A stretch of DNA of 57,895 bases, taken from positions 1 through 57,895 of IMG/VR virus record IMGVR_UViG_3300037508_000466. One strand, written 5' to 3'. Every line of letters begins with the position of its first letter. Within the stretch, counting starts at the first letter, position 1. This DNA comes from a virus (lineage: Duplodnaviria; Caudoviricetes). The position numbers and the translations under genes are program-made. The notes below the pieces were generated by a model, which made no database searches, was not told the origin of the DNA, and worked only from the letters and a program-made list of their open reading frames with translations. This document shows positions 1 through 48,296 of this stretch, piece after piece.

Positions 1-36
1 AGGCGGTTGGCAATGCCTTGTGTTGATAGTGAATGC

Positions 37-438
37 TCACTCTTCGTCACCTTGCAAGTAATTGTTGTACTTGGCGACCTCAGCAATGAGGACTGATTTG
101 GCTTTTTCAACGATTGATTTAGTCAGACGTTTTACATTGTATTTATCCCGTAGCTTTGACTTGCTTACAAATATGAACCCTACTTGCCCGCTATCCCAAC
201 GGCAATGAAACGGCTCTACATCAAGAGCAATGCCACTGTGTTCGTACATATACACCGGAAGGCATACGGCCAAATCATGTACTTTCTCAAAATACTTTAA
301 CATCTCACCCCACCCCGAAAATTCTTGTGATGATGGCTTGTAGTGTCCAGGCAGGTACTCCCACTTGTCGCCAATATTGTAGCGTCTATGATATAGCACC
401 ATAGAGCCAAGGTTGTCAAATTCTTCTCTTGGATTCAT
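37..438 (-). CDS. conserved phage hypothetical protein (133 aa)
   Basis: ORF with A-rich start; motif LPVYMYEHSG...WDSGQVGFI is familiar from phage early genes; start overlaps the stop of the upstream ORF. Confidence 0.75.
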   Translation of the reverse strand: MNPREEFDNLGSMVLYHRRYNIGDKWEYLPGHYKPSSQEFSGWGEMLKYFEKVHDLAVCLPVYMYEHSGIALDVEPFHCRWDSGQVGFIFVSKSKLRDKYNVKRLTKSIVEKAKSVLIAEVAKYNNYLQGDEE

Positions 439-677
439 AGTTTAGTTAGTTTATATTTTACACCATCAATTTCTACTACGCTTAGCTTTGGTCGGTTGTC
501 CTCTACATTACCATCCGAGTTCTCGAAGTAGATTTCGTTGCCTTCGGAATCGTATTCACGCTTTGACCAATACCCCTTTGAATTTTCAATGTAGATACGT
601 TTATCATTCTTGTTTCGGATTTCCAAAACCCCATTGATTTTGAAATCCCAGTTGATTTGTTGTGCGATTGTTTTCAT
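435..677 (-). CDS. hypothetical protein with Y-x-E-N-S-x-G beta-repeat (80 aa)
   Basis: Internal repeat IYIENSKG/IYFENSDG; start preceded by the 28-nt motif and an A-rich leader. Confidence 0.7.
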   Translation of the reverse strand: MKTIAQQINWDFKINGVLEIRNKNDKRIYIENSKGYWSKREYDSEGNEIYFENSDGNVEDNRPKLSVVEIDGVKYKLTKL

Positions 678-692
678 AGTTTAGTTAGTTTA

Positions 693-752
693 TATTGTTG
701 CCCCGTCGTAGGTGGTAGCGTACCCTTTGTCTTGGTGTAATGTCATTACACC
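693..752 (-). repeat. composite cis-element copy A (palindrome 735-751 + 28-nt motif 698-725)
   Basis: 693-751 matches 3801-3859 at 58 of 59 nt. Confidence 0.95.
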
Positions 753-1628
753 TTAGAATAATTTAATGTGTCGTGAGCCATTGTCAAACTCTCTGCGTAT
801 CTTTTTCATCGTATCGGATAGCCATTCCGCAGCACGTTCAGGTGTACCGAATCGAGCCTTGCTATCAGCCGCAGGCAAGTCAATCACAATCTCATCAGGC
901 GACACACGTATCCAATCACAGAACTCCTCATCATCCACAACATTACCTCTATTTTTCCCTGTCACACTGCCCCCATATGTATGGCTATACTTCTTGCCTG
1001 ATATTTTGTTAAACCCCTCGAACCAAGCAAAGCCAATGCGCCTGAAGAATGATGGATGTGTGACCGCACCAATACGCGGCACATCTACGCTTTCATTGTA
1101 ATCTTTCAACTCAATAGATTGAAGCCCCTTGCCCTCAAATACCATTTCGTTGATTATAGTGGCGGTTATCTTCGTGTCTGCCCAATCGCTAAGCACATCG
1201 CACAGCACAGCAATACACCCGCCGTGATTCAAATACTCTACATTAAAACAGCCTACCGTGTTGCACGAAAATGTAATGTGCATCTTCGGGCGACCTTGCC
1301 CTGTGCCCTCGCTTGACCACCAACACTTCATATCACCCGACAGGTATGTGGGCACATCAAGAGCGTCACCCGTGTATTTGAGCTCATCTTTAGGGCGGTC
1401 ATAGTCAATCATCCCCGCGATTATCTCTCGCTGATTGGCGATTGCCTTCGCATTGTACCCATCGTAGCACCGCTTGACCATAATATTGAAGCTCCTCGCA
1501 TCACCAAAAAAATCACCCCTCCCCAATTCGTGGCTTGACATTTCCTTATTGCCAATTTTAATAGCAGTCTGCACGAACTCCTCGAAGGTCGTGTGTATCT
1601 TAGTTAAATCACCTGTTTCGTACCTCAT
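753..1628 (-). CDS. putative VWA-like partner of MoxR ATPase (291 aa)
   Basis: Overlaps the stop of the upstream AAA+ gene; motifs DVPTYLSG and HPSFFRR; partner role inferred from MoxR/VWA gene pairing. Confidence 0.6.
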   Translation of the reverse strand: MRYETGDLTKIHTTFEEFVQTAIKIGNKEMSSHELGRGDFFGDARSFNIMVKRCYDGYNAKAIANQREIIAGMIDYDRPKDELKYTGDALDVPTYLSGDMKCWWSSEGTGQGRPKMHITFSCNTVGCFNVEYLNHGGCIAVLCDVLSDWADTKITATIINEMVFEGKGLQSIELKDYNESVDVPRIGAVTHPSFFRRIGFAWFEGFNKISGKKYSHTYGGSVTGKNRGNVVDDEEFCDWIRVSPDEIVIDLPAADSKARFGTPERAAEWLSDTMKKIRREFDNGSRHIKLF

Positions 1629-2608
1629 TTTTTAGCAAATTTTTTGTTAGAGATTTCAGCTATATCATCGACCAATCGCCTACGGACATCATCAGCCATC
1701 ATACCCGTTATCGCATAGTCGATTGCCTGAGTTGTCGAATACCCCATATCCACCAATGTGTTAGCGTGTATGCTTTGTCGTGGGCTAATTACAATATCCA
1801 TACCTAACTCTTTGGCTTTGCTACGTATCATCTGCACGATTGTAGTAATGGGTGTATCCCCCGCAACCTTGCGCTCCATAGCATTGTCAATATCCCACGG
1901 AATAGTAACGAACCTGTTGAGCGTACTCGCATCCTGTCGCTGCGCTGCCGCATACTGCTTGCTGCCCCCGCTACCCGTAGTATTCTGGCACGCCACCACA
2001 CGAAAGTCCTCGTGTTTCTTGACTAACTCATTGTTCGGGAATAAGTACGAAGCACCCGCCAACAAGTTATTCAGCGACACGACGACCTCAGTATTTGAGC
2101 GGTCAAATTCATCCAAGCATAGCAACCCGCCAAGCTTGAACGCACGATACATAGCACTCTCATTGTAGTCGCCCTTCGCATCCATATACCCACGCAAATC
2201 CGTGCTCGTCATCTTAGCGTGAAACGACACAGGGTAAAAGTCAAGCCCCAACGCACGGGCACACTGCTCGGCTGCCGTAGACTTGCCCGAACCCGCCTCG
2301 CCTACAAGCGCAACATTTATCCCCGCACCGACCATTTTGATTAAGTGCTCGAAATTCTCGTGCACAATATCCTCCGTGTGCTTAACACCCGACGGACGAA
2401 CCACGTGCACAGTGCGCTGAACGTTAGCTATTGACAGGACGGCATCCTTAAACTCACTCGAACTAACAATCTCGTCAATCGAAAGTGCATCGCCCGACAT
2501 CTCTTCAAGTATCTTAGCGAAGGACGATTGAGTGGCTTCGACGATACTTTTTTGCGTTTGCTCCGTTGCCTTAGCGACAACTTCTGCCCAATCTTGTTTT
2601 ACTCTCAT
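1625..2608 (-). CDS. MoxR/CbbQ/CobS-like AAA+ ATPase
   Basis: Walker A GEAGSGKS, Walker B LLCLDEFD, H-x-x-F-x-x-x-A-x-x-N sensor region, DASTLNRF arginine finger. Confidence 0.9.
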   Translation of the reverse strand: MRVKQDWAEVVAKATEQTQKSIVEATQSSFAKILEEMSGDALSIDEIVSSSEFKDAVLSIANVQRTVHVVRPSGVKHTEDIVHENFEHLIKMVGAGINVALVGEAGSGKSTAAEQCARALGLDFYPVSFHAKMTSTDLRGYMDAKGDYNESAMYRAFKLGGLLCLDEFDRSNTEVVVSLNNLLAGASYLFPNNELVKKHEDFRVVACQNTTGSGGSKQYAAAQRQDASTLNRFVTIPWDIDNAMERKVAGDTPITTIVQMIRSKAKELGMDIVISPRQSIHANTLVDMGYSTTQAIDYAITGMMADDVRRRLVDDIAEISNKKFAKK

Positions 2609-2626
2609 AGAATTTTATTTTATTTT

Positions 2627-2689
2627 TTGCCCCGTCGTAGGTGGTGGCATACCCTGTATTTATTTGCTCAATGTGTAATGTCATTACAC
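2627..2689 (-). repeat. composite cis-element copy B (28-nt motif 2627-2654 + palindrome 2673-2689)
   Basis: GGGTATGCCACCACCTACGACGGGGCAA on minus strand, 18 nt before ATG 2608. Confidence 0.95.
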
Positions 2690-2937
2690 CCTTTCAGATA
2701 CGCATTCTTCAAATCATCTTGGCTGAACCATTGATTAGTCCCTCCACGAAAATCTTTGTAGTCCTTAGCAGTGCGCACTAAGTACGTATCGTTCCCATCG
2801 TGCCACGATATGTAGTATATCTGCCCCGAAGGCGCGGTAAAGAACCCGCTGAAGTACATGTGCCCCTTGCTAATCTTAATCTCCGTGCACCCGCGACCTT
2901 TCAAAGTTTTTTTGATAAATGAAATGTGTTCGTTCAT
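2668..2937 (-). CDS. conserved phage hypothetical protein (89 aa)
   Basis: Motif YYISW...LVRTAKDYKDFRGGTN; coupled to the RadC stop; ends by translating the palindrome (CNDIT). Confidence 0.75.
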   Translation of the reverse strand: MNEHISFIKKTLKGRGCTEIKISKGHMYFSGFFTAPSGQIYYISWHDGNDTYLVRTAKDYKDFRGGTNQWFSQDDLKNAYLKGCNDITH

Positions 2938-3374
2938 AATAAATTGTTTTGAGTGAATGAATAATAGTCTGATTGTGTCAAAATAATGTGGTCTACAACA
3001 TTGCAGTTCATGTATTTCAATACCTCCTTCACGGCATTTGTCATATTCTTGTCCGCATCACTCGCATTGAGCGTACCCGATGGATGATTGTGCACTAATA
3101 GTACATTGGATGCAAGACTATCCACGACGTGCTTACATATTACACGTACATCTGCTACCGTTGATGATACTCCACCCTTGCCGATTAGCGCCCAATGCTT
3201 GGTCTGAAGTGCGTGGTCTAACAACACAATATAGAACGACTCAACTACGTCTATGTCATTGTCGTACAAACTACGTGCGAACTTAGCCGAAACATCAGGG
3301 CTGGTAATTTTAACGGACTTTTTTGAGCCGCCCCTAACGGGCACTGAAACAATTTTTCTTTGTGTTGTTGTCAT
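2934..3374 (-). CDS. radC: RadC-like JAB/MPN domain protein
   Basis: E...HNHPSGxxxxSxxD JAB motif and C-terminal DHIIL...YYSF. Confidence 0.9.
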   Translation of the reverse strand: MTTTQRKIVSVPVRGGSKKSVKITSPDVSAKFARSLYDNDIDVVESFYIVLLDHALQTKHWALIGKGGVSSTVADVRVICKHVVDSLASNVLLVHNHPSGTLNASDADKNMTNAVKEVLKYMNCNVVDHIILTQSDYYSFTQNNLL

Positions 3375-3574
3375 AGTTTTTGATTTGGTGTAATGTCATT
3401 ACACATGAAACAAACTGCGTTATGCGTCCATCCTCCATTGATTTTCTCACTCACAATGTGGCGCAACGCCTGAAACTTTGTGTAGTTGTAGAACCTGCGC
3501 ACCATACACGGGCGCTGCGTCGTGTCAAGCAAGTGTATGCTGAACGACCCATCTCTGTGCTTTACGTATTTCAT
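3371..3574 (-). CDS. hypothetical protein (67 aa, MKYVKHRD...)
   Basis: ATG 3574 overlaps the stop of the upstream ORF (ATGA); the longer track start at 3742 overlaps another gene. Confidence 0.55.
   Translation of the reverse strand: MKYVKHRDGSFSIHLLDTTQRPCMVRRFYNYTKFQALRHIVSEKINGGWTHNAVCFMCNDITPNQKL
3388..3404. repeat. 17-bp palindrome GTGTAATGTCATTACAC
   Basis: Exact copy, 13 nt upstream of the RadC ATG, without the 28-nt motif. Confidence 0.95.
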
Positions 3575-3789
3575 AGACAATGCACTAACGTGGTTACAAT
3601 AAGTCCAATTAAGTGCACTAACAGCACAAGGTTGCGCTGATTTTGTCCGAAATGGTCGGATGCTGAATACACGCACGCAACAGTGAGCGACGCAAACACG
3701 GATACGACAGGAGCGTATGAGGTGTCCGCTAAACACGCCCACAAGCAGGGTATAGCCGTGAGCAAAATGGTGTTGATAAGTTTTAACAT
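3571..3789 (-). CDS. small membrane protein (72 aa)
   Basis: Three hydrophobic segments; start follows the 28-nt motif and A-rich leader. Confidence 0.65.
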   Translation of the reverse strand: MLKLINTILLTAIPCLWACLADTSYAPVVSVFASLTVACVYSASDHFGQNQRNLVLLVHLIGLIVTTLVHCL

Positions 3790-3859
3790 AAGATTTTTTT
3801 TATTGTTGCCCCGTCGTAGGTGGTGGCGTACCCTTTGTCTTGGTGTAATGTCATTACAC
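3785..3859 (-). repeat. composite cis-element copy C (motif 3806-3833 + palindrome 3843-3859)
   Basis: 3785-3833 is identical to 3996-4044 (49 nt). Confidence 0.95.
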
Positions 3860-4000
3860 TACCTCGCATTCAACGTCAATAATGAATTGCTCCCGCGCTC
3901 GAAGCAATTCTTTCTCGTCTATTGTAAACTCTAAGCTAAGCGCAAGCGCCTCCTCGATTTGATTGAGCACCATAAGCTCATCGTAAATGGATTGAAACAT
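3854..4000 (-). CDS. small acidic hypothetical protein (48 aa, MFQSIYDELMVLNQIEEAL...)
   Basis: Manually translated, not in the ORF track; same leader as the 3789 gene; stop TAA lies inside the palindrome. Confidence 0.65.
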   Translation of the reverse strand: MFQSIYDELMVLNQIEEALALSLEFTIDEKELLRAREQFIIDVECEVV

Positions 4001-4016
4001 AAGATTTTTTTTATTG

Positions 4017-4044
4017 TTGCCCCGTCGTAGGTGGTGGCGTACCC
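4017..4044 (-). promoter_or_regulatory. 28-nt pseudoknot-like leader motif, copy D
   Basis: GGGTACGCCACCACCTACGACGGGGCAA, 16 nt before ATG 4000. Confidence 0.8.
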
Positions 4045-4049
4045 GTTGT

Positions 4050-4091
4050 TAAGGGCGGGGGAATCGAACCCCCGCTTGTACCATACCCTTA
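4050..4091 (-). ncRNA. minimal tRNA-like element (acceptor stem + T arm only)
   Basis: TAAGGGT-ATGGTACAAGC-GGGGG-TTCGATT-CCCCC-GCCCTTA: 7-bp stem, 5-bp T stem, canonical T loop. Confidence 0.7.
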
Positions 4092-4094
4092 GTG

Positions 4095-4111
4095 GTGTAA
4101 TGTCATTACAC
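4095..4111. repeat. 17-bp palindrome
   Basis: Exact copy; supplies the last codon and stop (GTG TAA) of the 4106-4735 gene. Confidence 0.95.
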
Positions 4112-4735
4112 CTGCTCCGACTTGTATTGAGCAATCATTACGCCTAATAAGCTGTACGCCTCCTCCAACTCCTCAATCGTGCCCTTATAGTGTTTGGTTT
4201 GATTTGAATCAACTCTGAACGCTATATTACGCTCCGCGCCCTCTTTGATTTCAGGCATCTTTGCGATAAATGTTATGATAGTCTGCGCATCGTACTTGCC
4301 CTCCGCTGCCTCCGCTGCCTCCTCTTCGGTCGCTCCATCCGCTATCGCTTCGCTGAACTTTTTGTTCCACGCTAACAGGCTCATAAGACCGCACTCTCTT
4401 TTTACGTCCTCATCAACCCACGACAAAAATTGTAGTAGTCGGGCATCGTCAATACGCCCCGCACGTATCAACAAATTGTGGTATTTGTTCACCTTTATTT
4501 GAACTTCGGTGAATCCACAATCCATCCAAAATTGTGTTTTCGTGTACTTTTTTGGATCGATATTTCCGACCTCTACACTTTGGGCATAAAAATCGTCGGC
4601 TTTAGCGCATTCCCGTGCGTGGTCGATTAGATAGGAAAACGCTTTGTTCCGCGCTTTTGCGCCCTGTATTTTAAGGGCTTGCGACGACTTACGAACGGCA
4701 ATGGTTACTTCTTTTACTGAAAATTGGGGTAACAT
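4106..4735 (-). CDS. hypothetical protein, first gene of the early unit (209 aa)
   Basis: Long ORF preceded by motif copy E and an A-rich leader. Confidence 0.8.
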   Translation of the reverse strand: MLPQFSVKEVTIAVRKSSQALKIQGAKARNKAFSYLIDHARECAKADDFYAQSVEVGNIDPKKYTKTQFWMDCGFTEVQIKVNKYHNLLIRAGRIDDARLLQFLSWVDEDVKRECGLMSLLAWNKKFSEAIADGATEEEAAEAAEGKYDAQTIITFIAKMPEIKEGAERNIAFRVDSNQTKHYKGTIEELEEAYSLLGVMIAQYKSEQV

Positions 4736-4754
4736 AAAATTGGGTTTATTTTTT

Positions 4755-4804
4755 TTGCCCCGTTACAAGTGGTGGCATACTTAGGTAGTGTAATGACATT
4801 ACAC
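4755..4804 (-). repeat. composite cis-element copy E (variant motif 4755-4782 + palindrome 4788-4804)
   Basis: AAGTATGCCACCACTTGTAACGGGGCAA, with compensatory changes relative to copies A-D. Confidence 0.9.
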
Positions 4805-4811
4805 CACTTCG

Positions 4812-4907
4812 TAAACGGGTGGGGAATCGAACCCCAAAATATTGCTTCGTGTAGGCACGTTCGTGCCGCATTCTTCCGTACACAATATTCCACACCTGCG
4901 CCCGTTC
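4812..4907 (-). ncRNA. tRNA-like RNA with D-loop remnant and branched insert replacing the anticodon loop
   Basis: Acceptor GAACGGG/CCCGTTT, T arm TGGGG-TTCGATT-CCCCA, stem AATATT/AATATT enclosing GTGTA/TACAC and GGCAC-GAAC-GTGCC. Confidence 0.7.
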
Positions 4908-5153
4908 TTTGGTTACGTTATCGTGGTTTGCGTTACGTCTCGGCATTCTCCTATTGGATAGTTTTTTCACGTTTGATCCTATGTACGTATTCGGTTTTAT
5001 ACGTTTGTATCCGTCCTTCAATTCTATCCTCAAGTGCTTGTACGTGCCCTTGCCGCATTGACCACTTTGCACACGATACCCTCCCGATTAAAGCTCCGTT
5101 TTACGCATTTCCATTCTTGCGCTTTCTGTTATTTGTGGCGTTGCCCTATACCC

Positions 5154-5170
5154 GTGTAATGTCATTACAC
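5154..5170. repeat. 17-bp palindrome
   Basis: Exact copy, extends to 19 bp. Confidence 0.95.
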
Positions 5171-5455
5171 GCCCTCCGTATTTGCCGCCTGTTACGTTTA
5201 ACTATCTAACATAGGTTAGACCGCTCCATAACATTCCACACAAGAACTTTCGTGCTTACCTCACGTGCCTGACCTTCGTTCTTCTTTCGTGCGTCTTGCT
5301 TCCAACTTTTAGGACGTGCGCACGGCGTTCGTGCGTACTGCTTGCGCTACCCCGTTCGGTATGTTCGGTACATACCCCTGTCGGTTTTTTCCATTGGTAG
5401 CCTAAAAGTCTGAGAAATGAAATTCTACCCGTTTACGCCCGTTCCCCCGCATATA

Positions 5456-5472
5456 GTGTAATGACATTACAC
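5456..5472. repeat. 17-bp palindrome
   Basis: Exact copy (central A), extends to 19 bp. Confidence 0.95.
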
Positions 5473-5578
5473 TGTATCCGTCCCCGCTCTGTATCAACTG
5501 CTTGCAAGCAAACCAAACAAATACCGCTATTTGTTTCGTCCCTCTTGTTTCGCCCGACCGTCTGTCGTTCCTGAACAA

Positions 5579-5622
5579 TGCAATTATAGTACATTGCCAT
5601 GCCCCAATGCAAGTATTTTTTT
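5579..5622 (-). promoter_or_regulatory. putative strong leftward early promoter
   Basis: Minus strand AAAAAAATAC-TTGCAT-18 nt-TATAATTGC: A-tract, -35-like box and TATAAT/TAnnnTTG hybrid. Confidence 0.55.
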
Positions 5623-5838
5623 CGTAGTACTGAAAAAAATATTAAAAAGTGAGTTTGTAGCGTTTTGAGGCGGATTAACACTGAAAAAAATATTTTTAAC
5701 ACTTGATACAAAGCAATTTAACAAAGGATAAAACACGATATAACAAAGGACGCAACAAAGGAAAAGCGCCGTAACATTAGATGAAGGAAATTAAGCCTAT
5801 ATTCGGACAATTTTGTCCGTTATTATTGCCCACTTAAT

Positions 5839-5919
5839 AGGATATTAAGACCTTTTTATCCGTTATTCCCGTGCGCCATAAGGGCAAAAAGGATATTAAG
5901 ACCTTTTTATCCGTTATTC
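5839..5919. repeat. 30-bp direct repeat AGGATATTAAGACCTTTTTATCCGTTATTC x2
   Basis: Exact copies at 5839-5868 and 5890-5919. Confidence 0.95.
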
Positions 5920-6155
5920 GTTGGTAGGTCTACAATAGTGGACAAAAAAGTCTAAATTTTGGGCAATGTTACAACATTAAGCTACCCCACCCACCCGACA
6001 AGGGGGGTGTTTGCGCACTCGGCACGGCATCGTGATTCGGGGGGATAACCCCCTCCTTCATACCATCTCATGTCCTTCCCCCCTCCGCCTGCCGGACACC
6101 CCCCTAAATATATTAGTAATATATATTACTAATATATTCATGCCCAAACACCCCA

Positions 6156-6200
6156 AAAATCGGCATAAAATCGTCATCAAAATCGTCATAAAATCGGCAT
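6156..6200. repeat. iteron-like tandem repeat AAAATCG(G/T)CAT x4
   Basis: Four adjacent copies and a further copy near 6240-6250. Confidence 0.85.
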
Positions 6201-6421
6201 GAACTAGAACTCTCTCTTCTTGCAACATAGTTGCATAAAAAAATCGTCATATCAACCCGATTTTGAACCGATTTTATGACACTTAACTCTCTGATTATGA
6301 ACAAATTCCAATTTTTTTTAAAATAATGATAAAGTTTAAAAAAAAGAGTTCTACGTATATAGAAATATGGCCAAAAAAAATCGGATTTTCGTCATGGGGT
6401 CTTTTTCCGTATCTTCGCCCT

Positions 6422-7915
6422 ATGGTAATTTTATATAATGATGCCCGCAGTAAGCTCGCCTCGGGTATTAAGCAGATGGCTTCGGCTGTCAAGAGCACAT
6501 TAGGACCTGGTGGCAACACTGTTGTCATTGATGCTGGTCCGGAGATGAGATTTGTAGGTGGTTTCACCATCACGAAGGATGGTGTGACTGTTGCGCGGTC
6601 CATTAAGTTGGATGATCCTGTCGAGAATCTTGCTGTCCGGATTATGCGTCAGGTTTCCGAGTTGTCTGCGAGTCGTGCTGGTGATGGGACTACTACTGCT
6701 GTTGTGTTAGCGGAGGCGTTGATTAGTGCTGGGGGTGGCCTCTCTCTTTCGGAGACGCGGGAGCTTCAGCGTCTTGCGGCATCTGCTGTCAAGATACTAC
6801 GTGGTCGGGCTCGGCCTCTGGTCACTTCGGACGGTCTGTTGAGTATTGCGACGATATCTGCGAATGGTGATGCTGAGATGGGCGCTCTGATTGCTGATGC
6901 TTACGAGCATGTTGGCAAGGGTGGCATAGTTGTGGCTGAGAAGGGTCAGGGTACGACTTGTACGTTGGACAAGCGTCGTGGGGTGAGGTTCCAGCGTGGG
7001 TATGCGTCGCGTGTGTTCGTGAACGACCAGAGTAACGACTCTGTGGTCTTCGACAATGCGTTGCTGTTGGTGATTGACGGTCCTGTGAACAACATCTTGC
7101 ACATTGAGACCATCATCAGGGGGGTGATTGCGTCGGGGGATCCTCTGGTCATCATCGGTGATGTCAGCGACCAGGTGGTGATGACTCTGGCGGCTAACGT
7201 CGTGAAGAATGGCATGCGGTTCGCTGTGGTGGCTCCGCCGAGCTTCGGGTGGCGTCGTCAGGAGCTGATGGAGGACTTGGCTCTCGTTACGGGGGCTAAG
7301 TTGTTCAGTGAGCGCACTGGTGATGACTTGAGTATTGCGACTATGGCTGACCTTGGCCGTGTCAACCGCATCAGCATCACGCGTGATGAGACCACTGTGA
7401 CTCTGGGTGACATTGTCCCCGATGAGAGCCGTATTGCTCAGGTTGAGAAGCAGGGTGGTGAGAACGCTGCGGACCGGCTGGCGATGCTGCGTGGTCTGGC
7501 GTCTGTCATACAGGTGGGTGCGCACACTGACGTCGAGCAGAAGGAGCTGTACGACAGGATGGAGGACAGTATCTGTGCTGTCCGCTCTGCTATGGAGGGT
7601 GGCATCCTGCCTGGTGGTGGTGTGGCGCTGCGTGATGTAGCTGCTGACATGGAGGCTGACTTTGATGACAGCCCGGCGTTGCGTGTGCTGACTAAGGCGT
7701 TGCGTGAGCCGATGCGTGTTCTGTACGAGAACGCTGGTATGGAGCTGCCTGAGGGTCCGCTGCCACATGACTACGGCATGTGTCTGGTGACTGGTATCGC
7801 TGGTGACATGTACGACCTTGGCGTCATCGACCCGGCGTTGGTGACGATATCGGCGCTTGAGGGTGCTGTGAGTGTGGCGTCTACTGTGTTGGGGTCTAAC
7901 GCTGTGGTGCTGTGA
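6422..7915 (+). CDS. groEL: chaperonin GroEL (Cpn60), phage-encoded
   Basis: TLGPGG, ITKDGVTVA, AGDGTTT, EGGILPGGGVAL, GVIDPA motifs; start revised to ATG 6422, after promoter-like TATCTTCG at 6410-6417. Confidence 0.95.
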   Translation: MVILYNDARSKLASGIKQMASAVKSTLGPGGNTVVIDAGPEMRFVGGFTITKDGVTVARSIKLDDPVENLAVRIMRQVSELSASRAGDGTTTAVVLAEALISAGGGLSLSETRELQRLAASAVKILRGRARPLVTSDGLLSIATISANGDAEMGALIADAYEHVGKGGIVVAEKGQGTTCTLDKRRGVRFQRGYASRVFVNDQSNDSVVFDNALLLVIDGPVNNILHIETIIRGVIASGDPLVIIGDVSDQVVMTLAANVVKNGMRFAVVAPPSFGWRRQELMEDLALVTGAKLFSERTGDDLSIATMADLGRVNRISITRDETTVTLGDIVPDESRIAQVEKQGGENAADRLAMLRGLASVIQVGAHTDVEQKELYDRMEDSICAVRSAMEGGILPGGGVALRDVAADMEADFDDSPALRVLTKALREPMRVLYENAGMELPEGPLPHDYGMCLVTGIAGDMYDLGVIDPALVTISALEGAVSVASTVLGSNAVVL

Positions 7916-8178
7916 AGGCGGTAGGGCGATACGTTGTGGTGGACCCGGTGCAGGGTCGCCCACAGAGTGGTGAGTTGGTGCTCAGCGTCAAGGATGCTGA
8001 CGACATCAGGTACCGGCACGGTGATGTCATTGCTGTCGGTGATCAGTGCTCGCCGGTGCTTGCCCCCGGGCAGCTGGTGGCATACGACAAGAACGCTGGC
8101 TTCAGGCTGATTATTGAGGACCGTCAGTTGCTCGTGATAACTGATCGTGATATCTGTGCTGTCTTACGAGAGAGTTGA
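7912..8178 (+). CDS. groES: co-chaperonin GroES (Cpn10)
   Basis: G-x-V-IAVG...L-x-x-G-x-x-V-x-YDK...DI-x-AVL pattern; overlaps the groEL stop. Confidence 0.9.
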   Translation: MKAVGRYVVVDPVQGRPQSGELVLSVKDADDIRYRHGDVIAVGDQCSPVLAPGQLVAYDKNAGFRLIIEDRQLLVITDRDICAVLRES

Positions 8179-8554
8179 TGATGCGAATGCGTGTGCGCAT
8201 CTTGCGCATGCGTGTTGAGTTGGTGGGCTCGGTCATCCAGGGCACGCGCTCGGGCATGACGCGTCTTAGGGCGCACCACTCCTTGATGTCGCGTACAAGC
8301 TGGTGTCCTCTCGGGGAGAGTGAGTGAAGGCGACGGGGGGTCTCGGTGACAACTGAGATCCACCCCTCGCGGATGAGGGCGCTGGTGACATAGCCAGAGC
8401 CATCGGAGCCGGCGAAGACCTCGCGGAGTTCTCTGATGGTGAGGTAGGGTTCATCGTGCATCCAGAGCATGGCGTCTAGTTCCTTGATGGAGAGGCCATA
8501 GGTCATGGAGACGTAGTAGCGGACGGCAGTCCAGTATTTAAGTGGGTTCGTCAA
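8111..8554 (-). CDS. putative winged-helix DNA-binding protein
   Basis: LKYW...YGLSIKELDAML...LIREGWI...SLSPRG is MarR-like; start revised to TTG ~8554. Confidence 0.55.
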   Translation of the reverse strand: MTNPLKYWTAVRYYVSMTYGLSIKELDAMLWMHDEPYLTIRELREVFAGSDGSGYVTSALIREGWISVVTETPRRLHSLSPRGHQLVRDIKEWCALRRVMPERVPWMTEPTNSTRMRKMRTRIRIINSLVRQHRYHDQLSRATDGPQ

Positions 8555-8562
8555 AACGTGAT

Positions 8563-8570
8563 TATATTTG
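8563..8570 (+). promoter_or_regulatory. Bacteroidota sigma70 -7 element TATATTTG
   Basis: TAnnTTTG consensus just before ATG 8586; also at 12988, 13189, 20595, 23969, 25347 (+) and 49245, 50965, 52144, 52873 (-). Confidence 0.7.
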
Positions 8571-45300: not shown

Positions 45301-48280
45301 AGATGCTATGATGGAGGCGCTTAAGGCGGAGCCCGCATACATAAATGCAACGATTGACGTCAAGAAACAGATGATGGTAGGGTTGCTTAACTCGAGCGAC
45401 ATCAGAATGAGCCGGAATATGAGGGCGTCTCTGCGCAGGTTGGCAATAGAAGCTAAGAGCATAGTCCGGGGCGGGAAGATAGCGAACACTGCTAAGGCTC
45501 AATTGGTGTCTTACATTATTGCTAGTCTGCCCAAATCAAAGTACACCACTAAAGAGGTTAAGTCTTTGCTTGAAAAAGTCAAAAAGGCTACAACCACAAA
45601 TATGGCGCAGATTATAGACGAGGTGCGGGATACAATTGCGACCATAAAGAACAGAGATCTTAAGTCTAGCATATCCAAAATGCTGGAAACAAAGATAACG
45701 AGTAAGAAAAAGGGCGTAATCTTAGGCAGGACGACTGTCGATGCTCAAGTTTTGCTGAACGCCCTAAATGGGGGTATGCTCATGAGTGAAGATAGCCCAG
45801 CGGCAAACATTGAGGCCAAAATAGCAGAGCAGTCTGTTGCCCTCGACACTCTACTTAATGAGATTAGTGCTCAGCCGTATGAAGTCCAAGAAGAGATACA
45901 AAGGAACATAGAGGCTCTTACGATAGCGGTTAAATACAATGCATCCTTGCTTATGGATGACAGCAATGATGGCAAGACGGACGTGCTAAAAGAAGTTGAC
46001 GATGAGTTGAAAAGAATACTCCGAGGAGAGAGAGCAAAGTTCTTAGAGGATAAGATTTCAAAGGCTAAGCGTAGAAATGAGTTAGCTGCAATTATGGCAT
46101 CAGACATCCTGCAAGTTGATGCAGATGAGCTGATGGCATTAATTGACGACAAGGAAGAGCTTGATAAATTAAAGCAAAGACTTTCCGATAGAACTGCGAA
46201 AAGAGAACAGAGATTCGTCCAAAGGTTTATAGATACGATAGTTGGCTTCTTGTCTGGGACGACGGAAGACTTCACCGGCATCATAAACAAGGTGTCTATT
46301 TCGGCAGTATCGTTATTTGAAGGTCTCGCATATGATATGACTGTAAGGAGGATATCCGATGCTCAAAAGGAATACGATAGACTTAATATACTCACACAGG
46401 ATATGCTTCAAGATGCAGCCAAGAGGATATTTGGTCCTAAGTGGGAAAGGGTGCTTGCCAACAACGCTAAACAAAACATTTCCTTCCCTGGGTTTGACCA
46501 AAAATTTAGCGTCAATCAACTGTACTACATATACAATCAGTATAAAAATCCGGCAAATCAAGAGTCCGTATTAAGTTCATTCAAAGATGCTGCCTCTAAA
46601 TATGGGATGTCGGAGTTGGAGTTTTTTGAATATATGTTAGACTTCCTTGCGAGAAACCACCCTGATGTTATTGAGTGGGCTGACTGGCAGGTTGATGAGT
46701 ACTTCCCTGCTGTATACGAACTGTATAGCCCTGTGTATGAGCGTGTGTTTGGCAGTCCACTCCCATGGGAGAGGCATTATGCAGGAATGTTAGTAAGAGA
46801 AGGGGTGTCGTCAACTCCTGAAATTTCAACTCTCTTTAGTGAGTTTAGATTGATAAGCCCAACTGTAGCGGGGGCGTCTACAAAGTCTAGGGTTAAATCA
46901 AAGTCTTCCATTAAGTTCATGGATGGGGATAGCATACTAAAGAAATACACCAGAGAGATGAATTTCTTTGCGTCTTTTGAAGAAGCTATCCGTGATGTTG
47001 CAAGCATATTTAACAATCAGCTTGTCAAGAAAGCCATAGAAGCCACTTCTGGCAAAAAAGTTTACAACAGCCTTGTTACGATGATAGAACGAATACAAGG
47101 AACGGGGTATGTGGAAGATCCTGCGTCTTTCATTATCACAGGTACTAAACAATTTGCAATAGCCAAGTTGGCGGGGAACTTTAGGGTGTTCCTGTCTCAG
47201 ATGACTACTGGAATGGGGTATGTCGCTGATATAGGGGCTGTAAAATTTGGCGTATATGCAGGAAAGATTCTCGGCGATCCATTCAAGATAAAGAGCATGG
47301 TCGATGAAATGAAGGAGTATAATGCCACCCTAAAGTCAAGGCTTGATGGTATTGATCTCAACGTCCTGTTAGGGGCATTGGGCAAAACTGATGACAATTT
47401 CTGGATCCCTCAAAAGTGGGTTCAGCACATGATGATTTTGGCTAGACTGGGTGACAAGTATGGTATCTTGACTGGCCTCCCGTTATATGCATACTACAAG
47501 GACAAGTACTTAAAGCAAGGCGTGAATGAGGAGTCTGCAAAGAAATTAGCTGCCGAGAAGTTTATGACTATAACTTCAAATGTCGCTCAGAGCAACAACC
47601 CTCAGAACAAAGGGCTGACTCAAACGGCAAGTGGCGGGATTGGAGACTCTATATTAAAGTCATTTACGCTGTTTGCATCTCAGCCGTTGCAATATCTTCG
47701 TATAGAAATCATGTCCATTAGGAATATGTATAGAATACTCTTAAGCACAGGGCCAAAAGGAGTTAAGTCAGAGGAGTTTGCAAAAAATTTGAGATCGTTT
47801 ATAGCTTTTCACTTTGTGATGCCGCTATTCTATAACTATGTGTTCTTGCTTGGCATGCCCGGTATTCTCAATAAATGGGATGATGATGACGAGAAAGACA
47901 TGATACTAACCGGCATTTTAGGCAATATTACCGCATTGATACTTATTGGCGATGTCATAGAGTCGTTTAAGGACTGGTACACCGGTAAGCCATGGGCATC
48001 TGACATGAGGAATACTCCATTCCTGATGGCGGCCAAAGACATCGTGAAGTCACTTCAAGATTATAACCGTGCCAAATCAGATTCTAAAAGGCAGTCGGCT
48101 ATGATAAAAATTGCGGCAAATATTACCGACTTGTCCGGCATCCCGGCGGGTACTACGCTCAAATACTACAAGATAATAGAAGAGATGATTGACGGCAAAA
48201 GTAAATTTGGCAAGAAAATATACGATTTATTCAACATGGAAGAAGAGGTCAAAAAAGGTCCGCCACCTCCTCCTATGTAG
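36353..48280 (+). CDS. giant internal virion / large polyvalent protein (3975 aa) with zincin-like and ART-like domains
   Basis: HDFFGH, HEILGH, HEYGH, HEFGH; YHRT...GLFFST and WHGS...GWGLYFT...NYVVFD. Confidence 0.8.
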   Translation: MAKQPTKLPSIPNLSQLSEAGRALSPPVVSVPIDELSKERLKPKKEPVTTPLGRPIVKPFAPDVQQRIEERLSEEADKEIAEIDYSAEPIDRAYQMDVEEEGLLDEVLDDAFLKMTAPEPFVEDLAMGVSSPVKKKPSAKDITRYLNLNLGKYGIVFDVDELNNIEARAGDKSIKVDLSSGFLKSSEGQRSEIKRLKDFVVKEAVTPEVGVSISNENRIKNELAQELGVNQREAYDVYNRRKSIRNLIKYIDENEQNESAMASLEKKYKKGRFELLQDLKKEAEDISPTADAYERDYILEVDKRLEAQVKESTAQAIKLRNIGESLTKSSADRFKAVTGVDLTPDNVKNLKFANKDQYDSVAEILNDYAKGIDVQKQAFNKYEDAKMYFNQKTNKQIQEETVGFIEGVSNSIKNAYYSTKGAKEYVKYASGLITQEEANKRMAYYSSKPQLPLSKTQLMLMQRMEEEGTFDFLGYLSDPTVLLPAATTLAADALTQMITMTGGEMLSIQAAGGVIGAGVGLLATKTPAGAAAGFRMGMSAAGTFNAYVGNVVSNVALEVGLNVFQAMKEKYTPEQIRRGEWVNDPEIEEKAMKGLIKGGAIAGTEIILQAMLDKFRISSIASAANRVSRTVVKNAAFETIQEGGGEAIGQLAAYGELNGNEVVAEMLGAGGMVASNPFGFYREVYMQLRNNYYEDLADNMSKSRAFINNTGDDINKVQEWTGNMRKLGKITEETERKIVENIADIRQARIALSSLDDTDAQRTKTIEKGTNTKAEDRLADLYAAKRKLERTPALNKPLQQSIQNEIDSIVLNKKVPKEVLNLSPIIGTGPVYKVDGEYVGKRYLDMIVKRMPPSVLSRMNIEIENDDAMSRAVAEKIEDDVSFNAADYGDDKITFVANDLDGLPPRFRDKANYNNSTRKYEVEVDKSELAKPSKDVSDADYEAFKQGQVNDDVLASIADDISEGRRPTARQLEIYNANKDAVNAKVGAEYTVVDPSSNYFGALRKVQMGGVVYAKNKITGRVYEVKTKNALDLAYNSGARITAEKPVRKVSGEFTTQIVYGQKAAERGNRLFNEPIPEVSKIADRYFEATFGRPRPRWYGSRKLDKERAKRIAKAYEEMEDNPLDPMVKAAYEALANETMAQYRYMLDAGYVIEINNEEPYTSSADMIADVRDNKRMKIYSTESGYGNEGITPEQRERNILLHDSGYKDVNGQTLLVNDVFRAVHDFFGHAALGNSFGATGEENAWNLHARMYSPLARQAATAELRGQNSYTNFSGVNERMEALRQEAAKLREEGKFDEAAAIVQKVYDTIKFAEQKQGLLPEEFSMVDESDTGDEKFMLIVDGQEVLSPEGVDEFKKFAASVASRIGISVEFINDERALFKGKYIPSKKRAVINLAYANAETVFHEILGHPIIEAMRNDPEYSELYENLKNEIETTELGQEVLSNVKNKYKFEDPDDYIDEAIVTLLGIMTDKVFKEKQNTKLLGMLKEMLKKMASFVQSLVKNDFILLSDIPSNATIKDIATIIGASESKIVLPREGLSKRLSGDALLNAQDLSNELLDNGAKIDADGLVTVYHRTTDDKKAQIEQSGIMLGLEDGLFFSTKESGQAEGYGDAVIQLRIPIEKLQLDDTFGDEAHVRIPTSKPRQSVDVSAYLTQPTSEEIGMRDGREMYQVEGWHGSPYEFDKFTTEKIGTGEGAQAFGWGLYFTDLKSIAEMYAKKLSGDEYSYDGKLISKDAYSYLFLADDSYGDNFNENTIRDIAKVAINKIKKEYIPDLKEIAKTSRSEKQRSEMPNEIKKLKGIIKELENIISSKEIKLEKNKMLYKVTLHKGKTPDQYDWLEWDKPISDLNRNKINSQFEKENLPKEVSDSGANETMRLLGKKTDYKIYRPRPISGSGKDFYNDLTKYFYESGIKNPQKEASLFLLRAGIDGVKYPAESIARGVTSDTARGFNYVVFDENAITIDDRTQFQKTSEMEGASQEYVEKVLSTMMAKFNVPYQIVNEPSDSRLGWTSWDSMGNPTVYVNMAQKVGFDTPIHEYGHVFIHMIKNGNKNAWSQILKELKYGDGKQELERVKREYPELDESGAFMEAAASLLGKYGAEQLDPKTGEYRLAEKIWTAVKQVINDFLKASGIKYKLNVAQVPASINAASTLQMLSLLLTDPDFSLTGGGVGMAKVPFQLSAEANNMLQYISNRFESTIVSSDSYEQTKFIFSIKSLNRFRNQVVNKRFREKNNKFVEALKNKSDRNLLIDVLKNVRQILDDNEHNSGPLHDVELLRAFSELDRLSVHSYGYSDAVSFLGDLFLIHHGNLLKILRNSVLKYPPAMLGLMNLRRLISGSNFDDVSTQDNKAVRTFLMPNKGEDVFADIISSIELDEITEFTDEDSANQDLVNYIAEDFATLTAMRGLSMTRYAQETYIRVGSGDPINTLASTYYVATNVSGDFNLSDAIYRDPSRLAMSEEFDDLILGNIYGFSADYVLVDLLTGDAGKVLPSDDSVIESVKNALTSREKEAYDNSAANQASNYRKGTFEYFHKGTNRMEGIEVTGNYSEYNKSIGISFTNNGPTYSGYTDNKAGMTVMPLVVKKIIEMFSDVEYDSINFTPLSNDGVNQKIKQDSQGKNVNNRLNMYNVYAIRLFGEYSLIKIDDDYQRSIPIPEVFKTKVLRDVVQDQRPSSSNTEWAVNSAPSNVVELAKFLNHAFPGVEVFMSADEFNRMRENGELDMVGEVYGMTKDGKIYINPDVHNSESELFNTLIHEFGHIWLNYIKVHNSALYARGIELVKSTKEYKAELAKGKSPNQAADEALAIIIGNRGAEVVNPKMKNWLKSLWRYITKYLGPIETMTLDDFINTALSDLLSGKPIPQSSEAFEVTLIPNPQFREDRDIIDIVRDARDRGYTDDAIKRYLQINKYEQDDITMFMSGLGNVITNIKSPELMPFPPAFANVPGGYHEGLAVWNRVRTVGVDLYRNRKKRKAIKGQKGLGDTIVDAMMEALKAEPAYINATIDVKKQMMVGLLNSSDIRMSRNMRASLRRLAIEAKSIVRGGKIANTAKAQLVSYIIASLPKSKYTTKEVKSLLEKVKKATTTNMAQIIDEVRDTIATIKNRDLKSSISKMLETKITSKKKGVILGRTTVDAQVLLNALNGGMLMSEDSPAANIEAKIAEQSVALDTLLNEISAQPYEVQEEIQRNIEALTIAVKYNASLLMDDSNDGKTDVLKEVDDELKRILRGERAKFLEDKISKAKRRNELAAIMASDILQVDADELMALIDDKEELDKLKQRLSDRTAKREQRFVQRFIDTIVGFLSGTTEDFTGIINKVSISAVSLFEGLAYDMTVRRISDAQKEYDRLNILTQDMLQDAAKRIFGPKWERVLANNAKQNISFPGFDQKFSVNQLYYIYNQYKNPANQESVLSSFKDAASKYGMSELEFFEYMLDFLARNHPDVIEWADWQVDEYFPAVYELYSPVYERVFGSPLPWERHYAGMLVREGVSSTPEISTLFSEFRLISPTVAGASTKSRVKSKSSIKFMDGDSILKKYTREMNFFASFEEAIRDVASIFNNQLVKKAIEATSGKKVYNSLVTMIERIQGTGYVEDPASFIITGTKQFAIAKLAGNFRVFLSQMTTGMGYVADIGAVKFGVYAGKILGDPFKIKSMVDEMKEYNATLKSRLDGIDLNVLLGALGKTDDNFWIPQKWVQHMMILARLGDKYGILTGLPLYAYYKDKYLKQGVNEESAKKLAAEKFMTITSNVAQSNNPQNKGLTQTASGGIGDSILKSFTLFASQPLQYLRIEIMSIRNMYRILLSTGPKGVKSEEFAKNLRSFIAFHFVMPLFYNYVFLLGMPGILNKWDDDDEKDMILTGILGNITALILIGDVIESFKDWYTGKPWASDMRNTPFLMAAKDIVKSLQDYNRAKSDSKRQSAMIKIAANITDLSGIPAGTTLKYYKIIEEMIDGKSKFGKKIYDLFNMEEEVKKGPPPPPM

Positions 48281-48296
48281 TGTAATGTCATTACAC
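48280..48296. repeat. 17-bp palindrome at the convergence point of the two transcription blocks
   Basis: Exact GTGTAATGTCATTACAC starting at the last base of the giant ORF stop. Confidence 0.95.

Follow-up and report, generated by a model that had tools for sequence, protein, structure and literature searches.

Palindromic hairpin units at early-gene cassettes of a tailed phage as candidate RNA-level punctuation

The early region of the phage DNA analysed here (the window: 57,895 nt, IMG/VR record IMGVR_UViG_3300037508_000466) repeatedly places the same short palindrome ahead of its genes, raising the question of what these units do. The source is a freshwater, Flavobacteria-type phage. A sequence-only reading had proposed that five minus-strand cassettes within 693..5473 each begin with the palindrome, followed by a pseudoknot-forming 28-nt motif and an A-rich stretch before the ATG, and that one long early transcript is cut or controlled there. 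The 17-nt palindrome, GTGTAATGWCATTACAC, occurs in nine exact copies in the window (Table 1) as against none in 100 shuffles, so the repeat itself is real. The proposed range holds eight copies rather than five: five are followed by the ~28-nt motif, the leader and an ATG as described, three (3388, 5154 and 5456) lack the motif, and the ninth lies outside the range. In silico folding predicts that each copy forms an RNA hairpin with a 7-bp stem and a 3-nt loop.

Other details of the proposed layout were confirmed. The five ATGs open ORFs, and two genes do stop on the palindrome's GTG TAA (Table 1). Long identities link the units, with 58 of 59 positions shared between 693-751 and 3801-3859 and an exact match between 3785-3833 and 3996-4044; in addition, the 24-nt arms 3841-3864 and 4783-4806 are 100% complementary. 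The ninth palindrome shares one base, the final one, with the stop codon of a 3975-aa ORF on the plus strand and is found 12 nt past the second tRNA-like gene on the minus strand.

Table 1. Palindromes and accompanying elements in the window
Feature	Position	Strand	Context
candidate host-type promoter	5583..5612	-	TTGCAT, 18 nt, TATAAT; head of early block; by eye, weak
palindrome	5456..5472	-	in non-coding leader; sense-strand centre T, inverted copy
palindrome	5154..5170	-	in non-coding leader
tRNA-like cloverleaf	4813..4907	-	7-bp acceptor-like stem, long central arm, T-arm loop UUCGAUU; immediately ahead of palindrome 4788-4804
palindrome	4788..4804	-	centre T; heads cassette 1
28-nt motif, diverged	4754..4782	-	then A-rich leader, ATG 4735 (209-aa ORF)
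palindrome	4095..4111	-	GTG TAA is end of 209-aa ORF 4106..4735
tRNA-like minihelix	4050..4091	-	5-bp acceptor-like stem and 7-bp T-stem, loop UUCGAUU
28-nt motif	4016..4044, core 4017-4038	-	then A-rich leader, ATG 4000 (48-aa ORF)
palindrome	3843..3859	-	GTG TAA is end of 48-aa ORF 3854..4000
28-nt motif	3805..3833, core 3806-3827	-	then A-rich leader, ATG 3789 (72-aa ORF)
palindrome	3388..3404	-	without motif; within end of 67-aa ORF; 13 nt upstream of RadC-like gene ATG 3374
palindrome	2673..2689	-	89-aa ORF reads through
28-nt motif	2626..2654, core 2627-2648	-	then A-rich leader, ATG 2608 (AAA_5 ATPase, 327 aa)
palindrome	735..751	-	1 nt past stop of DUF7192 gene
28-nt motif, GCTACC variant	697..725, core 698-719	-	then A-rich leader, ATG 677 (80-aa ORF)
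palindrome, ninth copy	48280..48296	.	convergent junction, where both transcription blocks end

The core of the 28-nt motif is present in four minus-strand copies at no more than one mismatch (none expected), and the fifth copy has diverged (4746-4780, 83% to the reference). The proposed pseudoknot was not supported: across 22 distinct unit variants RNAalifold predicted four pairs only, at -0.95 kcal/mol, none of these pairs had a compensatory change and four sequences broke one of them. Folds of single units had z-scores of 0.00 to -1.94, and the motif matched no Rfam family. It is restricted to one phage species cluster, comprising the window, G001 and five metagenome contigs. In the diverged motif paralogues at 4754-4782 and in G001 (L014 7665-7730), CCACCAC and ACGG.GCAA are kept while the bases between them vary, which suggests selection. 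On this comparison of sequences, the motif is conserved as sequence rather than as a demonstrable fold. By eye, its 3' end and the leader resemble the sequence that follows hammerhead ribozymes in related phages.

What had been called a mini-tRNA proved to be genuine. The minihelix begins 4 nt past the palindrome at 4095-4111 and folds as an acceptor plus T-arm (-17.7 kcal/mol, z -1.93), and 4057-4074 gives a local Rfam match to the tRNA/tmRNA T-arm (E 1.9e-4). The cloverleaf is a second, larger tRNA-like structure, additional to the one first noticed, with a predicted fold of -32 kcal/mol. Strain contigs L109 and L152 carry two compensatory double changes in it, G-C to A-U in the T-stem and C-G to U-A in the central hairpin. 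ARAGORN at default settings reported no tRNA in the window, and the two elements, found at only two of the eight early-block units, are not decoding tRNAs. A tRNA or tRNA-like element follows the hairpin by 2-5 nt in the window (4091), in MW202828.1 and in contigs L065 and L088.

Related phages carry comparable hairpins of different sequence. MW202828.1, a 69% TerL relative, has 14 copies of another palindrome, GTGTCGTTAACGACAC, before early genes; other contigs carry the forms GTGTCTTYRAAGACAC, GTCTCTTCGAAGAGAC and GTGCACTCGAGTGCAC; and more distant GroEL-linked phage contigs have hairpins of GTGTC..GACAC type. The potential to form a hairpin is thus kept between phages while the inner palindrome sequence changes. 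At least three exact copies of such a palindrome were present in 11 of 81 GroEL-linked loci. Some copies lie inside coding sequence (MW202828.1 44264, 51768 and 55154; G001 L014 9986, in a signal peptide), and in G001 one palindrome lies between a canonical terminator (hairpin plus T-run) and an ATG 19 nt further on.

By a strict pattern search, 13 of 83 sources contain type III hammerheads, 21 in total and all on the early-gene strand. Fifteen of the 21 are preceded by a perfect hairpin (arms of at least 7 bp) ending 0-6 nt before stem III, against a background of 469 in 20000 random 40-nt windows (2.3%). The full Rfam model RF00008 matches seven of these hammerheads (E 4e-7 to 3e-4), at 35.6-45.9 bits and thus below the gathering thresholds (curated cut-off 48.5). 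The order of hairpin and then cleavage module spans phages whose GroEL proteins are 40-47% identical. The early blocks of 19 sources contain 99 family hairpins; the next element was an ATG at 8-35 nt in 39 cases, a hammerhead in 15, the 28-nt motif in 11 (window and G001 only), a T-loop element in four and something else in 30. Rfam searches at E up to 10 found no hammerhead or other known ribozyme in the window (1-6400 and 3770-4125). Because the relatives' hairpins abut hammerheads or tRNA-like elements, the 28-nt motif would occupy the slot of an RNA-cleaving module; this transfer of a cleavage role to the window is by position only.

Strain differences fall at the units. In strain contig L178, window position ~2615 is joined to ~690 inside a unit and the two-gene cassette 753-2608 is missing. 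In L179 and L156, the gene behind a unit differs from G001's gene behind the same unit. Loss and replacement exactly at units support the earlier idea that the repeats allow cassette gain and loss, and these strain comparisons indicate that the units also serve as recombination joints.

How is the early block transcribed? Consensus scans found no promoter within the units, in agreement with the earlier description. The candidate at the head of the block has a perfect -10 hexamer and only three of six matches at -35, so the scan did not list it; at the equivalent place MW202828.1 has TTTG-N20-TAccTTTG, also weak and seen by eye. A Pfam scan of 57 ORFs revealed neither a phage RNA polymerase nor a sigma factor. 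The 3975-aa ORF, which closes the structural block, matched no RNA polymerase family in PHROGs or Pfam, gave no hit in the PDB (E up to 1) and lacks a D[FYLIVM]DxD motif. By language model it neighbours clusters of polyvalent proteins that carry ART-PolyVal and LPD domains, a lead only.

Several known systems resemble these units in part. The T7 early transcript is made by the host polymerase and cut between genes by RNase III, the upstream product keeping a stabilising 3' hairpin. We propose a similar course here, but T7 sites are long irregular hairpins, whereas those described here have 7-8 bp and would be cut alongside, by a ribozyme or presumably RNase P. tRNAs punctuate mitochondrial polycistronic transcripts, and RNase P cleaves bacterial operon mRNAs. 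The two tRNA-like elements of the window likewise stand between genes as possible cut marks; unlike in tRNA punctuation, most units lack one. REP elements are extragenic palindromes, found in both orientations between co-transcribed genes, whose 3' hairpins protect upstream mRNA; they are imperfect, about 35 nt long, chromosomal and linked to RAYT transposases. The phage palindrome shares their placement and orientations but is an exact 17-mer, and no RAYT-type gene was found in the scanned ORFs. PeSLs are reportedly promoter-early stem-loop cassettes of T4-type phages (PMC2839356). PMC4122927 describes them as terminator/promoter cassettes mediating module shuffling. Like PeSLs, the units are small composite repeats that separate variable early genes and act as homologous exchange points, with indels and replacement at the units; unlike PeSLs, which hold a recognisable early promoter, they showed none in the consensus scans and have probable RNA-cleaving modules as companions. 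In passages of Perreault et al. 2011 (PMC3088659), hammerhead clusters flank phage and prophage genes and are proposed to divide long phage transcripts into mRNAs of single-gene length. The relatives similarly carry type III hammerheads between phage genes on the sense strand; they differ in having a genome-specific hairpin 0-6 nt before the ribozyme, and the window differs in having no hammerhead. A slot interchangeable among ribozyme, tRNA-like element, 28-nt motif and nothing is absent from those passages. The earlier statement that the combination was undescribed therefore needs narrowing: hammerhead clusters and PeSLs are in print, whereas we found no description, in the literature as far as these sources extend, of Flavobacteria phages in which a hairpin specific to each genome is coupled to cleavage modules that can replace one another.

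Could the palindrome instead act as DNA? N4 early promoters, as described in passages of PMC4496689, are hairpins with 5-7-bp stems and 3-nt loops that are recognised sequence-specifically, a geometry that the palindrome fits. It would then extrude as a DNA hairpin, and an injected virion RNA polymerase would transcribe each early gene separately, starting a few bases downstream. As in N4, a small 3-nt-loop hairpin precedes early genes of a podophage with a giant virion protein gene, here the ORF that closes the structural block; copies are identical within a genome, different between phages and confined to the early block; and, where no further module intervenes, 13-28 nt separate hairpin and ATG. 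The G001 order of terminator, palindrome, 19 nt and ATG also suits a promoter better than punctuation. We nevertheless consider such promoters quite improbable, given that no polymerase was detectable in the 3975-aa ORF by PHROGs, Pfam, PDB and motif searches and that no other ORF matches an RNA polymerase or sigma family. The palindrome has at least eight copies as against three in N4, ribozymes abut the hairpin in relatives, and a transcript started downstream would probably miss part of a ribozyme whose stem III 5' strand begins 0-6 nt past it. The copy at 48280, moreover, would drive antisense RNA only. Identity within a genome and concerted change between phages would also suit an operator, to which a DNA-binding protein of the phage or the host would bind as a dimer and so regulate or switch off the early block, perhaps as a roadblock. 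The perfect 16-17-bp dyad with conserved outer half-sites GTGT..ACAC and the occurrence of the central bases in both orientations are as a symmetric site predicts, and in imperfect copies G-U does not consistently outnumber C-A on the sense strand (4 versus 3, one orientation uncertain). This reading too seems improbable, as the sites lie between co-directional genes rather than at promoters, and the fixed, one-strand coupling to hammerheads and tRNA-like elements at 0-6 nt is left unexplained. No candidate regulator co-occurs with the palindromes; none of the window's ten early-block proteins (37-4735) had a tblastn match in the 14 palindrome-rich relatives, and only nine of the 23 proteins tested matched any locus.

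The units might also be passive or mobile repeats, REP/MITE-like or PeSL-like linkers that spread or promote cassette exchange, with the shared 5' leader and motif copied along and no dedicated role in RNA processing; the motif may then be a decayed hammerhead remnant. Copies in both orientations with shared flanks of 2-5 nt, the complementary 24-nt arms, copies within ORFs and strain breakpoints in units all agree with this, as do the narrow distribution of the foldless motif, its by-eye resemblance to post-hammerhead sequence and the indels ascribed to PeSLs in PMC4122927. We regard it as unlikely, since neither a transposase nor a HUH/RAYT-type gene turned up in the scanned ORFs, the diverged motif paralogues keep their two conserved blocks, and the hairpin-then-module order holds across distantly related GroEL-bearing phages.

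On balance, the units probably punctuate, at the RNA level, a polycistronic early transcript made by the host polymerase, with the hairpin left as a protective 3' end on the upstream message. The excess of exact copies, the hairpin kept across phages, its coupling to hammerheads and tRNA-like elements, the absence of polymerase and sigma genes among the scanned ORFs, the cassette breakpoints and the published hammerhead precedent all argue for this, as does the ninth palindrome: a hairpin at a 3' end has a use where two convergent blocks finish, and a promoter has none. Against it stand the absence of a ribozyme from the window, the sub-threshold scores of the relatives' hammerheads, palindromes in coding sequence, a motif without fold or covariation, a head promoter that fails the consensus scan and the G001 arrangement. 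A structural hairpin alone also leaves unexplained both the identity of all copies within one genome and the conservation of the outer GTGT..ACAC among phages with GroEL proteins only 40-47% identical; both point to a putative sequence-specific partner. The original proposal of a long early transcript cut at the units gains indirect support from the coupling of hairpins to hammerheads and tRNA(-like) elements in relatives, and for this phage cleavage is suggested by analogy.

As RNA punctuation, the units would work as follows. Host RNA polymerase would start upstream of ~5580 on the minus strand and read the whole early block, each palindrome being transcribed as its predicted hairpin. The RNA would be cut a few bases downstream, in relatives by a type III hammerhead 6-12 nt past the hairpin, and by RNase P where a tRNA or tRNA-like element begins 2-5 nt past it. 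In this phage, RNase P would act at the two tRNA-like elements, and at the other units the target of a putative agent would be the 28-nt motif, or else the single-stranded spacer with the A-rich leader. The upstream message would be left with a terminal hairpin as a shield against 3' exonucleases; the downstream message would open with a small element of RNA structure, then a standard A-rich leader, which may suit Shine-Dalgarno-free initiation, as in Bacteroidota. Because the relatives' hairpins stand directly before self-cleaving hammerheads or tRNA-like structures, the units most likely mark sites at which a long early RNA is divided into separate messages, and because identical stretches of 17-60 nt separate unrelated accessory genes, they also act, as the strain comparison shows, as homologous joints for the loss, gain and swapping of cassettes.

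The record is linear, 57,895 bases long and estimated to be 95% complete. In the large terminase subunit, identity is 69% to MW202828.1, an uncultured podovirus whose genome plan is the mirror image of that of the window, 45% to Elemovirus phages of Flavobacterium and 36-38% to several Cellulophaga podophages. A close relative among IMG/VR contigs, G001, shares 99.3% identity with window 7171-1 and carries other genes beyond that; blastn found nothing among GenBank phages for positions 600-5600. Searching IMG/VR with a GroEL profile yielded 80 loci whose GroEL is 40-47% identical. Gene blocks and other features are collected in the table.

Coordinates of gene blocks, sequence elements and neighbouring features in the window
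Feature	Position	Strand	Remarks
Early block bearing the units	from near 5600 down to 1	minus	
GroEL, terminase, portal, structural proteins, 3975-aa ORF	6326-48280	plus	
Replication and lysis genes, two tRNA-like genes	57895 down to ~48300	minus	
Palindrome, early-block copies	735-5472		eight copies
Palindrome, ninth copy	48280-48296		
28-nt motif, diverged fifth copy	4746-4780		
tRNA-like minihelix (predicted)	4050-4091		T-arm match 4057-4074, E 1.9e-4
Larger tRNA-shaped structure (predicted)	4813-4907		in non-coding leader
Leader segments	5171-5455; 4805-5153	minus	non-coding, palindrome-bounded; 5171-5455 has repeated GCACGAA-type words and a direct repeat, 5271-5301 / 5313-5343
Sigma-70-like TTGCAT-18-TATAAT	5612-5583		ahead of leader
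Three 33-nt direct repeats	5793-5919		spacing 43 and 51 nt; in divergent control region between early block and GroEL
A+T-only palindrome cluster	6108-6137		up to 20 nt (TTAGTAATATATATTACTAA); directly upstream of GroES/GroEL genes
Small ORF	6295-6603	minus	matched in 64 of 81 related loci (tblastn)
The phage's own GroEL	6326-7915	plus	PF00118, E 5.9e-42
3975-aa ORF	36353-48280	plus	
Two tRNA-like genes	48297-48548	minus	extra sequence in or near anticodon arm; G002 differs from the window exactly here
Rfam tRNA match	48410-48544		135 nt, 35.5 bits; the second gene is called by ARAGORN only with a 26-nt intron allowed
112-aa ORF	48885-49223	minus	Tad2-like Thoeris anti-defence domain, PF11195, E 4e-23

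In the window, the 17-nt palindrome GTGTAATGWCATTACAC is present in nine perfect copies, against none in 100 shuffles, and is predicted to fold into a stem of 7-8 bp closed by a 3-nt loop. Three of the eight early-block copies lack the 28-nt motif, one lying 13 nt before a RadC-like gene and two in the non-coding leader of about 850 nt. The exact palindrome is present in two IMG/VR contigs; G001 has 11 copies. MW202828.1 carries a different palindrome, GTGTCGTTAACGACAC, in 14 copies, all in the early and middle block and most of them 3 nt past a TAA and 19-26 nt ahead of an ATG, with no 28-nt motif. Palindromes repeated at least three times were found in 11 of the 81 GroEL-linked loci scanned, most commonly as GTGTCTTYRAAGACAC, with GTCTCTTCGAAGAGAC and GTGCACTCGAGTGCAC also seen, and nearly all lie upstream of GroEL, in the early block. 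Thus between loci the stem is kept and the inner bases vary by phage, with wide retention of the outer GTGT..ACAC. The first 32 kb of Flavobacterium phage elemoE (large terminase subunit 45% identical) contain no palindrome repeated three or more times.

Because a hairpin acting through its fold alone need be neither identical between copies nor keep GTGT..ACAC, the identity of all copies and the retention of these outer bases in distant phages suggest a sequence-specific partner. When 23 window proteins were compared with the 81 related loci by tblastn, nine matched any locus and none tracked the palindrome; the ten early-block proteins had no match among these loci. Imperfect hairpins, read by eye, have G-U versus C-A on the sense strand in 4 versus 3 cases, an uninformative difference, and with each of CA, TG, TA and CG found at the centre there is no orientation signal. 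None of the four terminator-like sites in 1-9000 coincides with a palindrome copy, and the inspected flanks have no T-run. Some copies lie inside coding sequence. One G001 copy (L014 9986-10002) is in frame within a signal-peptide-like ORF start (MKKLFLLSVMSLHLF...). Beyond the early block, one family palindrome lies inside conserved coding sequence in each of four related loci (L041 ~13058, L098 ~13621, L059 ~14753 and L030 ~6539), oriented as the gene is and lying past GroEL in at least three cases.

The sequence-only reading had described five minus-strand cassettes, each headed by the palindrome, the 28-nt motif folded as a pseudoknot and an A-rich start. Much of this architecture held: the five ATGs are ORF starts, the two long repeat identities are exact (58/59 and 49/49), and the TAA inside the palindrome is the stop of two ORFs. 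The motif core is present in four copies at no more than one mismatch, besides the diverged fifth. The pseudoknot was not borne out. RNAalifold on 22 distinct unit variants, taken from the window, G001 and five metagenome contigs, returned 4 pairs at -0.95 kcal/mol, with no two-sided change and one pair broken in four sequences, and whole units folded no better than shuffles, apart from one that was weakly better (z 0.00 to -1.94). Attempts by hand at an HDV-like or pseudoknot fold gave no consistent pairing. A search with Rfam 15 at E up to 10 found no ribozyme family for the motif in 1-6400 and 3770-4125 (356 bases), which excludes described families only; the motif had no match to any other kind of Rfam family either. 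Other self-cleaving classes expected in Rfam 15 are twister, twister-sister, pistol, hatchet and HDV-like. A scan for complementary partners of the motif on both strands of the window met nothing beyond its antisense copies and short matches at chance level.

The motif is confined to the close strain cluster of this phage. Its pattern was met in other viral contigs at four loci, all apparently coding and unrelated to the unit. Two diverged paralogues keep CCACCAC and ACGG.GCAA with the bases between them varying, which suggests that sequence is under selection. On the plus strand, the octamer GGTGGTGG resembles Chi sequences, but this reading was dropped: strain variants change it to GGTGGTAG in several units.

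The same position behind the hairpin is occupied in relatives by recognizable RNA elements. The evidence on hammerheads comes from these relatives and not from the window, which gave no RF00008 match at E up to 10 and no hit to a strict pattern (CUGANGA, GAAA, a UH cleavage triplet and pairing in all three stems). This pattern identified 21 type III hammerheads, spread over 13 of 83 sources and without exception on the early-gene strand. For 15 of the 21, stem III is preceded at a distance of 0-6 nt by a perfect hairpin whose arms are 7 bp or longer, against a background of 469 such hairpins in 20,000 random 40-nt windows of the same loci. Membership of Rfam Hammerhead_3 (RF00008) was judged by a CUGAUGA...GAAA core, a triplet such as GUC, closed stems I and II and an open stem III, and seven of the hammerheads match the model end to end (E 4e-7 to 3e-4). 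Because their scores of 35.6-45.9 bits lie below the curated 48.5 bits, they were absent from a run at the gathering threshold.

A tRNA-like minihelix begins 2-5 nt after the hairpin in the related locus L065, in MW202828.1 and at window position 4091, and another related locus, L088, has a tRNA gene at this distance. The mini-tRNA proposed from sequence alone for one of the gaps was confirmed as a T-arm match within a predicted minihelix. Both this element and the larger structure in the leader are predicted to have an acceptor stem and a T-arm (GUUCGAUUC-type loop); in the larger one, the T-stem and the central hairpin show one compensatory double change each, in two strain contigs. ARAGORN at default settings called no complete decoding tRNA in the window, and its early-region calls at relaxed thresholds had implausible introns of 42-449 nt. 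A census covered 99 family hairpins in early blocks from 19 sources; the hairpin is followed by an ATG within 8-35 nt in 39, a hammerhead in 15, a T-loop element in 4, the 28-nt motif in 11 (all from the window and G001; in two the minihelix is present as well) and something else in 30.

Hammerheads cut themselves, and tRNA-shaped elements are established substrates of RNase P. Either cut would fall a few bases past the hairpin and would leave an upstream RNA product that terminates in the hairpin and a downstream product starting with the folded element and the A-rich leader. This hairpin-then-cut layout is as expected if a polycistronic RNA is to be divided into messages that are each stable on their own. 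Since the 28-nt motif occupies the same slot as the cleavage elements of relatives, we interpret it as one component of such a processing and leader module. Such processing could also release the two leader segments as small RNAs. On balance we lean slightly towards the view that the units are RNA-level punctuation of a host-transcribed polycistronic early RNA, with the hairpin as a protective 3' end. Splitting of a long RNA is also the purpose proposed for hammerhead clusters in prophages (PMC3088659).

No RNA polymerase or sigma factor was found in 57 ORFs with Pfam or in 28 ORFs with PHROGs. The sigma-70-like site ahead of the leader was read by eye and fails the -35 criterion of the tool, and in the matching place MW202828.1 has a Bacteroidota-type TTTG-N20-TAccTTTG. 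From the failure to find such genes and from these promoter-like sites at the head of the block, we infer that host transcription starts there. The view that the units have no promoter of their own stands for their interior, and one sigma-70-like match (787-760) adjoins the unit at 751. A sigma-70-type scan gave 18 sites against 12.2 expected, none between palindrome and ATG of a unit, and the Bacteroidota promoter TTTG-N17-23-TANNTTTG was set aside for the units with one window match against 1.77 expected; promoter counts in the region are near shuffle expectation. Four public RNA runs were aligned with 1-9000, all of them assembled contigs at a depth of 2-6 that do not resolve RNA starts or ends. 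Two RNA contigs each span a unit (X19, 579-877; X18, 4006-4404), which is not proof of a single transcript. Contig breaks at 716/722, 3823 and 4006 fall at repeats and are assembly effects, and a joint 692->3387 in contig X15 was left out, as one side has 20 letters only. One metatranscriptome run has contigs over 4971-5428.

The sequence-only reading had also expected cassettes to be gained and lost at the units, and strain contigs agree. The contig L178 aligns with window 2939-2615 followed by 752-494, the two stretches overlapping inside a unit; it thus represents a strain without the AAA-ATPase and DUF7192 genes (753-2608), joined inside the unit. In L179 and L156 a unit and its upstream gene are common with G001 and are followed by a different gene, a replacement. 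The PeSL cassettes of T4-type phages (PMC4122927) show the same insertion, deletion and replacement at a repeated stem-loop, but PeSL contains a promoter, whereas the window units have no recognizable early promoter. The units explain the shuffling of accessory early genes between strains, many of these genes having no known relatives.

The palindrome could instead be an N4-like hairpin promoter, a DNA operator or a passive or mobile repeat. These alternatives are kept in play by the copies inside coding sequence, the sameness of the copies with GTGT..ACAC kept, and one G001 copy that follows a canonical terminator and stands 19 nt before an ATG. A promoter would gain further from the fit of the hairpin, identical in all copies, to the N4 promoters as given in PMC4496689 (5-7 bp stem, 3-nt loop), but no counterpart of the virion-packaged RNA polymerase of N4 was seen in the window ORFs. 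Also against a promoter, stem III begins 0-6 nt past the hairpin in relatives, so that the ribozyme would need an RNA starting further upstream, and the copy at 48280 lies at the end of both transcription blocks. We regard all three as unlikely, with little to choose between them.

A polymerase gave no signal in the 3975-aa ORF or any other ORF, although a very divergent one would need structure to exclude. At E up to 1, nothing in the PDB matched the 3975-aa ORF, nor does the ORF contain a DxDxD-type motif as in crAss-type polymerases. Its match to ART-PolyVal is weak and below cut-off (E 4.4e-4), and the language-model clusters closest to it consist of polyvalent proteins that bear ART-PolyVal and LPD domains, a lead only. 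For early transcripts of crAss-like phage phi14:2, made by a virion polymerase, the preprint 10.1101/2020.03.07.982082 reports no common upstream motif detected, and phi14:2 thus offers no template for the window units. The 33-nt repeats between the early block and GroEL, which match an Rfam CRISPR repeat model at chance level only (E 3.9), may be binding sites or iterons.

Beyond punctuation as such, a fuller scheme would have a family of Flavobacteria-type podophages share modular RNA punctuation, in which a GUGU..ACAC hairpin is read by a sequence-specific phage or host factor and coupled to interchangeable modules (type III hammerhead, tRNA-like minihelix or 28-nt CCACCAC..ACGGGGCAA), with the motif replacing the hammerhead as a new small self-cleaving RNA or a site-specific endoribonuclease signal; in this entirety it is improbable. 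In open-access full texts, we found no description in Flavobacteria phages of a genome-specific hairpin combined with interchangeable cleavage modules.

To our knowledge, initiation in Bacteroidota is not led by Shine-Dalgarno sequences and phage transcription in this group is little known. If punctuation at the RNA level is correct, it would mean that a Bacteroidota virus obtains many messages, each stable on its own, from a single early transcript made by the host, by means of a standard hairpin and plug-in cleavage modules. It would also give a search rule, to look directly behind the family hairpin; neighbourhood logic of this kind has led to new ribozyme classes, and here it singles out the 28-nt motif as a candidate new processing signal.
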